Shown here piece by piece: positions 18,515 to 45,475 of a stretch of DNA of 60,131 bases; the first letter of the stretch is position 1, and each line of letters starts with the position of its first letter. Under the pieces are notes generated by a model that ran no database searches, had not been told where the DNA came from, and saw nothing but the letters and a program-made list of their open reading frames with translations. The DNA is from Patescibacteria group bacterium (lineage in GTDB: Bacteria > Patescibacteriota > Minisyncoccia > Phycocordibacterales > CSBR16-119): the NCBI GenBank assembly GCA_030917865.1, contig JAUPTX010000003.1, positions 1 to 60,131 of the forward strand. The letters are read 5' to 3'. A program made the position numbers and the translations under genes.

Positions 18515-19045
18515 ATGACACCTCTTGCAAACACAACAAATATAATCCTTGGTGCGGGAACCCTTATTTTACAAGCTATTTCTTTGTTTTTGATAGTTTC
18601 AATAATAACAAAAGATAAGGGCACTGTGCTTGTGTGGTTTAAAGAAAAATCTTTATTACTTGCAACGGTTGTACTCTTGGGCTCAGCAGCAGCAAGTCTT
18701 TGGTATTCAGAAGTTATCGGATATCTTCCATGTCTTATGTGCTGGTATCAAAGAATAGCAATATATTCTGCTGGTATAATCGGACTTATCGCAATATTAA
18801 AGAAAAGAGGTGACGAGGCCTGGATTTATATAAACACATTGTCGATACTTGGATTTATAATTGCAGTTTTCCACATATTCTCAAGATTCACAAATTCAGA
18901 AATATTTGACTGCGCAGCCTCAGGACCATCATGCCTTCAAGAATTATTTAAAGTTTATGGATTTATAGATATACCGGTAATGTCCTTTACAGCTTTACTG
19001 TTTGTCTTATTGTTAAACATAAACAGGAAAAGACTTTCTAAATAA
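18515..19045 (+). CDS. dsbB: Disulfide bond formation protein DsbB/BdbC family
   Basis: YLPCLMCWYQRIA, C..SGPSC, IPVMSFTA; 4-5 TM. Confidence 0.9.
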   Translation: MTPLANTTNIILGAGTLILQAISLFLIVSIITKDKGTVLVWFKEKSLLLATVVLLGSAAASLWYSEVIGYLPCLMCWYQRIAIYSAGIIGLIAILKKRGDEAWIYINTLSILGFIIAVFHIFSRFTNSEIFDCAASGPSCLQELFKVYGFIDIPVMSFTALLFVLLLNINRKRLSK

Positions 19046-19225
19046 TTACCTAAATCAAAAACACCCGGTAAGGGTGTTTTTTGATTACCATTTTAAAGCA
19101 CCAAATTTCGATCAAATATTTTAACCGTTTTTAATATTGCGACGCAAAAATAAAAGACAAAAGTTATCCACAACTTTTTTGAAAAATAATTTGTCCTTTA
19201 TGTCCTTTATGAATATAATAAAAGT

Positions 19226-19510
19226 GTTCGAAGATTTATAAGAACTAGATATACAAGGAATACCCACCTTACTGGGTCATAAAATAAAACAAGTATAATC
19301 ATCACTTAAGAAGATTCGAACGACAAAAGCCTGATGAGGACGCTTCAGGGGAAGCGAAAAGTACAATTAAATAAATCTGGTTGACGAACCATAAACGTAG
19401 ATTTGTACATTTGAAGTAATTTGTTCTTTCCTAGAGGTATCCATTCCTCAAATTTTATACGCCGTATAGGCGACATGATGAAGACCCGACCCATTTGGCC
19501 GGGTCTTGTT
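19226..19510 (+). ncRNA. Putative structured non-coding RNA of unknown class
   Basis: ORF-free interval with TATAAT boxes at 19214 and 19294, nested stems and a terminator hairpin at 19481-19510. Confidence 0.4.
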
Positions 19511-19525
19511 GATTTTAGGCTTATT

Positions 19526-20236
19526 TTACAAGGTTTTTAATATAAAAAGCTCTAGATTGTTTTGAAGGTCTTCCCCTCTCCTGGCGTCATGATAGATTGA
19601 AACTAGATCCTGTAACGATTTTTTAAGTATTTTTTCTTCCCAAAACTTAGCATTTGCCATACTTTTCTTAAAAACAAACGGATTAAGGCCAGAATTCTTT
19701 ATTTCAGAATCTGCGCCTTTTTTATTTTTTGTTAAAATCAAAGCTTTTATTGCCCAAATCAATATATTCACCACATCTTCTGGCAAAACCCCTTCGTTTA
19801 TAGCTTTTTGATAGATAACCCAAGCATTTTTCTTGTCTTTTTTAGAAAATGCATCAGTAAAAGCAAATATATTAAACTTTTTTTCTTCTTTTTTAGGATC
19901 TTCAAAGATAAAAATGTTCTCAGAAACCTTTTCTATTGGCTTTATATCTGTCTTCTTTACACTAGATTCAATAAAAATAAATATATTTGTTGATTTTTCA
20001 AGGTTTTTAGTGTTTTTACAAACAAAATCCATATTTTCTTTGTTTTCGAGCACGGAGTTAAAAACAAAAACGCTTTTTTTACCAAAAAGGCTTGAAGATT
20101 CTAGGTTTTCAAGCAAATAATCAAAAGAAAAGGTGTTTTCTGGCACAAAAACAACTTCATATTCAAAAAAACGCTTGAGTGCTGACTCAAACGCCTTTTT
20201 TCTTTTTTCAAAATTTCCAGAAAATAAATAAATCAT
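19526..20236 (-). CDS. holA: DNA polymerase III delta subunit-like (HolA), shortened
   Basis: MIYLFSG, SSLFG, FNIFAFTDA, GLNPFVFKK, LELFIL. Confidence 0.7.
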   Translation of the reverse strand: MIYLFSGNFEKRKKAFESALKRFFEYEVVFVPENTFSFDYLLENLESSSLFGKKSVFVFNSVLENKENMDFVCKNTKNLEKSTNIFIFIESSVKKTDIKPIEKVSENIFIFEDPKKEEKKFNIFAFTDAFSKKDKKNAWVIYQKAINEGVLPEDVVNILIWAIKALILTKNKKGADSEIKNSGLNPFVFKKSMANAKFWEEKILKKSLQDLVSIYHDARRGEDLQNNLELFILKTL

Positions 20237-28923: not shown

Positions 28924-29095
28924 AAAGATCCACAAACCTCCAAATAATCCTTTTTCCTGCAAAACAGGAAAAGTAATGGAATCTCAAAGGATAGTCGCAG
29001 TAACTCCCACTCAAGGTGGGTAACCATTACGTCCTTTTCAAAGCCATATAGACATTGCCTGATTACTTAGAGGTTTGTGAACCCTTTCAAAGAAG
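28924..29095 (-). ncRNA. ssrS: Probable 6S RNA
   Basis: ~26-bp closing stem (28924-28949 with 29061-29087), central bubble with a 3' hairpin TTTTCCTG/CAGGAAAA, inner stem GTAATGG/CCATTAC; TTTACA-17-TACATT promoter at 29102-29130. Confidence 0.65.
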
Positions 29096-29282
29096 ACCTA
29101 TAATGTATCAAAGACAAAATATATTGTAAAGTCCTTTTAAATTTTCTTTAAAAAGTCTTTTATATTTCAGTCCTTTAAAACATCAAATTCCTTTATTTTT
29201 AAACAAAAAATCACAAAAGTGATATAATGTTTTCAAGGTATTTAATTTACTTACTTCAAAAGTGTAGCATATAAAAACAATT

Positions 29283-39417: not shown

Positions 39418-39604
39418 GGTTTTTAAGCTAAAAATAATTAAAGTGTTCTCATTATAAACTTTTTATTAAACGAAAACTTTTTAACAAAAATGTTTATAAC
39501 CTGTGGATAACCTTAATTATATAAAATCACAAAACAATTTAAAAATTTTTATAAAGTAATAACCATTGATTTATTTTTCTGTCTAGTATATACTCATACC
39601 ACTT
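39418..39604. promoter_or_regulatory. oriC sub-region / divergent dnaA-rpmH promoter with DnaA boxes
   Basis: Perfect TGTGGATAA at 39502-39510; variant TGTTTATAA at 39491. Confidence 0.7.
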
Positions 39605-45179: not shown

Positions 45180-45475
45180 TACATAGTCTTTTAATTTATA
45201 TGCATTCAAAAAACCTTATTTTACAACGTTTTTGTTTAAAAAGGGTTTAAAAAAGATTCAAAAAATACGCAAAAAGACAAAAGTTACCAACAATACTAAC
45301 AGGGTTATCCACATATGTTTGTTTATAAACCCTTATTTTTTAACAAATTAATTTCTTAAAATAAGAGACAAAAATTAAAAAAGAATAAGTGTCCTTTATA
45401 AAAGACATATAAAATGATTGTCTTTTATTAAACATTAAAGCTCGGTCTTTTAGAAGACCGAGCTTTAATTTTTTG

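Follow-up and report, generated by a model that had tools for sequence, protein, structure and literature searches.

A predicted stand-alone noncoding RNA gene with a DnaA-box promoter between dsbB and holA in one family of Parcubacteria

Introduction

What occupies the 480 bp between dsbB and holA in the genome of a Patescibacteria group bacterium (GenBank assembly GCA_030917865.1)? The two genes lie on contig JAUPTX010000003.1, in a stretch of 60,131 nt (positions 1 to 60,131 of the forward strand) that is called the window throughout. A reading of the letters of this window alone, hereafter the original prediction, had placed an unassigned structured RNA between the two genes and had taken it for a lineage-specific noncoding RNA (ncRNA). 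Parcubacteria/Paceibacteria have genomes of 0.5-0.8 Mb with very few transcription factors, and we know of almost no regulatory RNAs that have been described in them. Herein, we report that positions 19226-19516 of the plus strand are very probably a genuine stand-alone ncRNA gene, whose transcript is predicted from sequence, and that the RNA is specific to one family of Parcubacteria/Paceibacteria. As an explanation of the whole, we lean towards a family-specific gene for a stable folded ncRNA that would be tuned by DnaA and would carry docking motifs for a protein, most likely the NusB-S10 heterodimer.

Results

A transcription unit with its own promoter and terminator

About 300 bp of the gap had been described as free of open reading frames (ORFs); those found at 19046-19525 are only 32-49 aa long, overlap on both strands and are spurious. 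All sequence strings quoted in the original prediction were found at their positions. A consensus scan recovered the proposed promoter TTGTCC-17-TATAAT, which is near-consensus and of the sigma-70 type, with 10/12 matching positions, and the proposed terminator hairpin was likewise recovered by scan, together with its T-run; the terminator-like count was 2, against 0.3 expected in shuffles. The T-run is interrupted in this genus (UUGUUGAUUUU). The RNA is richer in G+C (0.375) than the upstream spacer (0.276), as proposed, and the whole window stands at 0.359. Positions 19220-19515 of the plus strand fold with a minimum free energy (MFE) of -70.2 kcal/mol (z -2.8 versus dinucleotide shuffles), which was equalled by 1/200 shuffles. 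Since the minus strand of the interval folds about equally well, the orientation of the gene must come from other evidence. The promoter and the terminator both point in the plus direction, and several conserved G-U pairs, some of them in the terminator, fit the plus strand only, as they would be A-C on the other strand.

Conservation of the gene within the genus

In every other species of the genus (7/7), BLAST recovered a single full-length orthologue; 53 genomes from other genera gave no match. A pattern scan of metagenomes added one further variant, L054. The genus comparisons below use 8-9 sequences. The order of genes is constant in the genus (thioredoxin-like gene, dsbB, RNA, holA, PEMT-like ORF, polA). 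Nucleotide identity of the RNA to the window is 71-82% in the genus relatives; the values are 64-67% for holA and 69-72% both for dsbB and for the PEMT-like gene, and none is detectable for the spacer at 19046-19160. The promoter block TTTGTCCTTTATGTC(C/T)TTTA-N5-TATAAT is invariant in the eight genomes. The comparison shows purifying selection on both the promoter and the predicted RNA body. Among the genus orthologues there is no conserved small ORF within the RNA, and the indels are not multiples of three.

A secondary structure maintained by compensatory changes

A proposed structure with 50 pairs, distributed over nine helices, was scored on a MAFFT alignment (Table 1). Standard pairs filled 96.0% of the cells, against 27-52% when the 3' partners were slid by 1-3 columns, and compensatory changes were present in 8/50 pairs (12 cells), against 0-1 pairs in the slid controls. 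Not one of 500 shuffles reached the observed values of pairing and compensation. Because changes in length had misaligned hairpin P4 in MAFFT, it was scored on fixed-length cut-outs, where its covariation score was 0.68 versus 0.24 in shuffles; its stem varies among CGCUUC/GAAGCG, UUCAUUUC/GGAAUGAA and UCGCAC/GAGCGA around an invariant C-AGGG-G tip. The alignment shows at least six of the predicted helices to be kept through compensatory or wobble changes.

These results sort the pairings of the original prediction. The hairpin CGCTTC-AGGG-GAAGCG (P4) covaries strongly, with compensatory changes in 4/7 pairs; GGTT-GACG-AACC (P6) covaries in 2/4 pairs, and the terminator has two compensatory pairs. 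GTACA/TGTAC occurs in this genome alone and is not supported; the same goes for the long-range pairing TGAGGA(19335)/TCCTCA(19445), whose CCTC instead pairs locally, and with covariation, with GAGG (P7). The second promoter-like TATAAT, at 19294, is not a promoter: it reads TATCAT in most relatives and forms the 3' strand of P2.

A perfect DnaA box and a repeated 9-mer in the promoter

We took as a DnaA box the 9-mer TTATCCACA (TTWTNCACA) at a conserved position. The promoter of the RNA gene carries such a box about 20-30 bp upstream of the -35 element, at one of two spacings, in all nine genus sequences. In the other genera of the family, the box is perfect or has one mismatch in g3 and g4 (TTTTCCACA, TTATGCACA) and has one to two mismatches in g2. 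While the other species carry a single box, locus L002 (genome G002) carries a pair side by side, GTTATCCACACTTTTCCACAA (TTATCCACA plus TTTTCCACA).

Perfect TTATCCACA boxes number only four in the 462-kb assembly, and three of them are within the window (19164, 39502 and 45305). The box at 39502 stands upstream of dnaA and is the same GTTATCCACA 10-mer as that in the promoter of the RNA gene. A DnaA box upstream of dnaA is the classic autoregulatory arrangement.

Outgroup genomes place the box in another context: in L081 (3440-3840), L137 (3435-3815) and L105, a TATCCACA box falls within the final codons of dsbB (K-Y/R-Y-P-Q). In the family, dsbB ends earlier than in the outgroups and the box persists in non-coding DNA; its retention there speaks for selection on the DNA motif as such. 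Coding sequence may thus have been recruited into a promoter.

The second component of the promoter is the 9-mer GTCYTTTAT, which forms a tandem direct repeat in the genus and an inverted repeat in g4. Most genus orthologues also have a counterpart (AAAAGAC/AAGGGAC) of the inverted copy that lies next to the DnaA box, and the 17-mer promoter repeat is found at this site only within the genome. A separate intergenic region at 45268-45430 contains AAAGACAAAAGTTACCAACAA, a near-copy of positions 19153-19173 (AAAGACAAAAGTTATCCACAA), with the perfect DnaA box at 45305, and a cluster of three GTCYTTTAT copies in both orientations at 45390-45428 (45391 plus, 45398 minus, 45420 plus). This region may belong to oriC or act as another promoter of this kind.

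Unpaired motifs resembling boxA

The RNA contains two pyrimidine-rich motifs, M1 and M2, that stay single-stranded in the genus consensus fold as well as in that of g4. M1 takes the form CGUAGAUUUGUACAUU in this genus, and M2 has the general form UGUUCUUUC(C). The boxA element, bound by NusB-NusE (S10), has the consensus GYTCTTTAANA (PMC5725501). In every genus, the M2 core GUUCUUU agrees at 7/7 positions with the start of this consensus, which is a gamma-proteobacterial one. The likeness extends through the AACAA half in g2 (UGUUCUUUCAACAAUU) and in outgroup L137 (GAUCUUUAAACAAUU). In Firmicutes, boxA is of the UGUUCUUUGAAAACU type, and further boxA elements occur in the leader of suhB and ahead of CRISPR arrays. 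The genome of the window encodes a NusB homologue (35% identity, E 1e-16).

Two further observations concern the rRNA genes of the family. The 16S 3' end (L058-L062: G009, G011, G012, G014 and G004) reads ...GGUCGUGGAAUAAUUCAAUUUGA and has no CCUCC anti-Shine-Dalgarno sequence. At the same loci, the 16S gene has its own terminator within about 250 nt, followed by a protein gene, and is unlinked to 23S.

The dsbB-holA slot beyond the genus

In holA-anchored loci, the arrangement thioredoxin-like gene, dsbB, gap, holA, PEMT-like gene, polA is kept in all four genera of the family, with gaps of 360-760 nt. On the strand of dsbB, every one of these gaps has a promoter and a terminator as well as a structured body. 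Six g4 sequences have compensatory changes in 26/48 predicted pairs. Comparison of the syntenic dsbB-holA regions had been proposed as a check, and the pairs of those collected here covary both in the genus and in g4. One g4 genome, G013, is intermediate, sharing 20/25 nt with the genus at M1 (AGAUUUGUAC..GAGUAAUUU).

To widen the comparison, 80 Paceibacteria loci were fetched via alignment of the neighbouring thioredoxin-like protein. dsbB adjoins the thioredoxin-like gene nearly always, and an RNA-sized gap with the motifs is confined to loci that have a convergent holA on the downstream side, namely those of the family and of outgroups L081 and L137. In three other genomes with dsbB next to holA, the gap measures 100-160 nt and contains no RNA. 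Within the family, G018 has lost the arrangement, and its holA has another neighbour. The RNA of outgroup L137 is about 190 nt long; its closed hairpin domain is followed by AAAUAGACGAUCUUUAAACAAUU and finally by a terminator. The loci show a much-diverged predicted RNA gene of the same layout in the same slot in four genera and two outgroup genomes. Its body keeps across lineages 'CCYGAU' plus one or two unpaired pyrimidine-rich motifs with the GUUCUUU core, and nothing else.

When 301 genomes of the order and 20 of the family were searched with a core covariance model of the RNA (R1, 149 positions), the RNA was recovered in the eight genomes of the genus and in no others. Weak R1 matches at L033 and L034 were rejected as terminator-like chance matches, and second-locus matches to the RNA 5' end (L009 and L010) were chance matches inside coding sequence. 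The long terminator hairpins of g4 (L043, L044, L045, L047 and L049) carry a conserved apical hairpin, UUGUC(C)-N3-5-(G)GACGA, which is not usual in simple terminators and may have a function of its own.

Comparison with known RNA families

A search with Rfam, proposed earlier as a check, assigned the RNA to no family. At the gathering score, the 4227 models of Rfam 15 found only tRNAs in the whole window; at E<=10, the 601 nt around the RNA gave only terminator-type chance matches, and the weak matches of the small RNA (sRNA) terminator type were confined to the dsbB terminator at 19057-19082. At E<=1, no match fell inside the RNA in 12 positional homologues. ARAGORN reported nothing at the RNA gene.

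The original prediction had also set aside RNase P RNA, transfer-messenger RNA (tmRNA) and signal recognition particle (SRP) RNA, a judgement borne out by model searches of the relatives and by the missing SRP54-type GTPases. RNase P RNA (RF00010) is located at other loci in 6/7 genus relatives; in G004, for example, it is at C1:173738-174044 and the orthologue of the RNA gene at C1:70855-71164. RF00010 has no match in the assembly of the window, which is 76% complete and simply without RNase P RNA. tmRNA (RF00023) lies elsewhere in 8/8 genus genomes (C9:16409-16783 in the genome of the window). For SRP RNA, RF00169 and RF01854 find none in the genus or the family, and a pattern search for SRP domain IV found nothing in the genome of the window. 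SRP54-type GTPases (Ffh, FtsY) were found in 0/20 family genomes, 13 of them at least 90% complete, with 14/14 controls positive, and the genome of the window has no Ffh/FtsY-type match by motif or tblastn. Since the family is without Ffh and FtsY, no SRP RNA is expected. Nelson and Stegen (2015) reported ffh and ffs as undetectable in Parcubacteria (PMC4508563); beside this published absence, FtsY too appears to be missing in the family.

A hammerhead ribozyme, suggested by CUGAUGA...GAAA at 19331-19360, was rejected, as CUGAUGA varies among relatives (CUGAAGA, CUGAGGA, CUGAUUA, CUGAUCA) and Rfam gives no match. The 6S RNA model (RF00013) has no match in the eight genus genomes, a result to be read with the model being positive in only 5/10 bacterial control genomes. 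A 6S rod does not fit the fold either: the RNA 5' end pairs within the first 96 nt (P1, 19226/19321), the 3' end is the terminator hairpin, and the whole is a multi-hairpin fold. The better 6S candidate that had been noted at 28.9 kb, 28924-29130 on the minus strand, is a second candidate for a stand-alone structured RNA, rod-like, with a long closing stem (MFE -68.1 kcal/mol, z -5.25). Its 5' part, GGUCUUCUUUGAAAGG, is close to the rRNA-leader boxA of the lineage (UACUUUGAAAAC), and RF00013 does not match it at the gathering score.

With conservation in the whole genus, covarying pairs, a promoter and terminator of its own and no known family, the description as a lineage-specific ncRNA stands. 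The DnaA box, the promoter repeats, the boxA-like motifs and the occupation of the slot family-wide and beyond had no part in the original prediction.

Table 1. Predicted features of the RNA gene, its flanking genes and the dnaA locus (window coordinates)
Feature	Position	Strand	Evidence or remark
dsbB	18515-19045	+	Pfam DsbB
dsbB intrinsic terminator ACACCC-GGTAA-GGGTGT with T-run	19057-19082	+	sequence; parts dsbB from the RNA gene
ATAAAAGAC, inverted copy of GTCYTTTAT	19150-19158	+	just upstream of the DnaA box
DnaA box GTTATCCACA (perfect TTATCCACA)	19163-19172	+	identical in 9/9 genus sequences
Promoter: -35 TTGTCC, 17-nt spacer, -10 TATAAT	19191-19219	+	consensus scan; invariant in the genus
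Tandem direct repeat TGTCCTTTA TGTCCTTTA	19192-19209	+	spans the -35 element and spacer, overlapping the promoter
ncRNA, about 291 nt	19226-19516	+	ends predicted from promoter and terminator
5' domain, closed by P1	19226-19321	+	helices 1-4 84-97% paired
P1 GUUCGAA/UUCGAAC	19226-32 / 19315-21	+	5' strand invariant
P2	19247-54 / 19293-300	+	inside P1; 1 compensatory pair
P3 ACCC/GGGU	19262-65 / 19274-77	+	inside P1; 2 compensatory pairs
Unpaired AAAAGCCUGA	19325-19334	+	invariant in the genus; 'GCCCGAUUACG' in g4, 'CCUGAU' in outgroup L137
P4 hairpin CGCUUC-AGGG-GAAGCG	19341-19356	+	compensatory changes in 13 cells
P5 AAUCU/AGAUU, enclosing P6	19374-19403	+	97.5% paired
P6 GGUU-GACG-AACC	within 19374-19403	+	100% paired; 2 compensatory pairs
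Motif M1 CGUAGAUUUGUACAUUUGAAG	19396-19416	+	largely unpaired; (U/G)AG(A/U)UCUUUG/C in other genera
Motif M2 UUUGUUCUUUCCUAG	19420-19434	+	unpaired, boxA-like; core GUUCUUU at 19423-29 in every genus
P7 hairpin GAGG-UAUCCAUU-CCUC	19434-19449	+	100% paired; G-C to C-G swap in 2/8 sequences
P8 hairpin CGCC-GUAUA-GGCG	19460-19472	+	invariant in the genus, hence uninformative on pairing
Intrinsic terminator AAGACCCG...CGGGUCUU, then UGUUGAUUUU	19481-19516	+	scan (hairpin 19481-19507, T-run); 2 compensatory pairs
holA (DNA polymerase III delta subunit)	19526-20236	-	Pfam DNA_pol3_delta_C
dnaA	38062-39417	-	Pfam Bac_DnaA, DnaA_N, Bac_DnaA_C
Perfect DnaA box (GGTTATCCACAGG)	39502-39510	-	about 85 nt upstream of the dnaA start

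Discussion

The question of what the RNA does can be approached from its promoter and its unpaired motifs. In the explanation that we favour, DnaA would tune transcription of the RNA gene, as it would at the dnaA promoter of the same genome, and the unpaired GUUCUUU motifs would be docking sites for a protein. The most likely partner would be the NusB-S10 (NusE) heterodimer, the reader of boxA in rRNA leaders. Docking of Nus factors at the predicted motifs is our best single guess at a mechanism and is put forward tentatively. Two options would follow from it: a Nus-modified elongation complex of the rRNA type may make the RNA and help it to fold, or the released RNA may act as a decoy for NusB-S10 and tie the availability of Nus factors to DnaA status.

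Several observations weigh against this explanation. Helices P1, P5 and P8 are conserved on both sides and are without compensatory change, so that the pairings GTTCGAA(19226)/TTCGAAC(19315), AAATCT/AGATTT and CGCC-GTATA-GGCG of the original prediction hold as conserved sequence but not as covarying pairs. M1 reads GAUUUGUAC here and not GUUCUUU. The 16S-leader boxA of the family is YUUUGA(A/C)AAC (UGUUACUUUGAAAACU in the genus), and its 3' half is missing from M2 in this genus. A boxA is expected near the 5' end of a long Rho-exposed transcript; the motifs here are at about +170 to +205 of 291 nt, 60-110 nt before the terminator. The 7-nt U-rich core could also serve another partner. Finally, R1 fails to score the positional homologues of the other genera, and the proposed homology across genera is not statistical; it draws on position, promoter architecture, short motifs and the intermediate G013.

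A bolder form of the proposal is a regulatory device with an rRNA-type nut site outside rRNA, in which a DnaA-controlled short RNA, kept universally only in a hairpin domain plus boxA, would titrate NusB-S10, and so couple ribosome synthesis to replication status, or would drive terminator overrun that silences the convergent holA-polA genes. Together with the RNA at 28.9 kb and its boxA-like 5' motif, this would amount to a phylum-wide 'DnaA box + boxA' ncRNA module. We regard this form as improbable.

Among the alternatives, we rank a seed-type sRNA highest, followed by read-through against holA-polA and then by a 6S-like role. As a trans-acting sRNA, the RNA would use a pyrimidine stretch (UGUUCUUUCC) as a seed for purine-rich (GGAAAGAACA-like) sites in mRNAs, with the hairpins providing a scaffold and stability, and conserved single-stranded motifs between stable hairpins ahead of an intrinsic terminator are indeed the usual anatomy of bacterial sRNAs. 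However, the complement of the 10-mer is found nowhere else in the 462-kb assembly, the 17 matches to the 9-mer GAAAGAACA show no preference for the vicinity of gene starts, and RNAduplex against the pre-16S rRNA of one member of the genus gave no pairing beyond chance level. A mimic of the anti-Shine-Dalgarno sequence has no basis, since the family 16S 3' end lacks CCUCC, and 290 nt with more than eight helices is large for a seed-type sRNA, which leaves this role doubtful. The act of transcription itself may matter instead of the product: a DnaA-controlled promoter and a nut-like site would allow read-through into the convergent holA-PEMT-polA genes, with antisense or interference effects. 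The confinement of the RNA to loci with holA convergent just downstream (the family, L081 and L137, with absence in G018) fits this idea, as do the minimal L137 version, which has hardly any parts besides its closed hairpin domain, its terminator and a good boxA-like site, the DnaA box at the promoter and the interrupted T-run (UUGUUGAUUUU) of the genus. Yet helices P7 and P8, downstream of the motifs, are strongly conserved or covarying and argue for a functional RNA body; rRNA-type Nus complexes are generally known to counter Rho and not strong intrinsic terminators; and the link to holA may be mere inherited synteny. We consider read-through unlikely.

A 6S-like or other RNA-polymerase-binding RNA of the lineage would suit a strongly promoted, highly conserved gene of the abundant type, and the silence of RF00013 in the genus, weak evidence either way, would leave room for one; the RNA nevertheless has no rod with a central bubble and no 6S match at E<=10, and the RNA at 28924-29130 is the better rod-like candidate, which makes this role highly improbable. 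That the locus contains no gene, and that its hairpins arose by chance in degenerate leftovers of a mobile element or of the 3' end of dsbB, is very unlikely. The outgroup TATCCACA box within the last dsbB codons does imply that the region derives partly from old coding sequence, but the RNA is more conserved than the flanking genes, shows compensatory changes behind an invariant promoter, and has neither indels in threes nor a conserved ORF. A highly diverged RNase P RNA, tmRNA or SRP RNA, for which a length of about 290 nt and the silence of RF00010 in an incomplete assembly could be cited, is refuted by the presence of RNase P RNA and tmRNA at other loci and by the family having no SRP RNA and no SRP54-type GTPase.

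The predicted gene resembles several known systems in part. Promoters regulated by DnaA (dnaA autoregulation, the Bacillus DnaA regulon) likewise have a perfect TTATCCACA just upstream of the -35 element, whereas the product here is an ncRNA and copies of GTCYTTTAT, a second repeated 9-mer, flank the box. With the boxA of rRNA leaders and of the lambda nut site, it has in common an unpaired GYUCUUU core beside hairpins in an untranslated, strongly promoted transcript, and in g2 and L137 the match runs on to ...AACAAUU; unlike them, the transcript ends 60-110 nt further on, and there is no long RNA to protect. 6S RNA and Ms1 are also strongly promoted, conserved RNAs of the housekeeping type with 200-300 nt, but the RNA here has no rod with a bubble, no stem closing its 5' and 3' ends and no model match. 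The orphan structured ncRNAs (the raiA motif and others of the Weinberg/Breaker type) are similar in being stand-alone genes with a promoter, a terminator and a covarying multi-helix fold, in their narrow phylogenetic range and in having no known function. The present RNA differs from them in being fixed to a single syntenic slot, in its DnaA-box promoter and in having no Rfam 15 match.

In so small a genome, an ncRNA gene that is better conserved than the protein-coding genes beside it is likely to have a central role. The promoter architecture and the boxA-like motifs suggest that replication control may be linked with Nus factors and RNA synthesis. For annotators, the locus provides a defined new RNA family that fills a gap now left blank.

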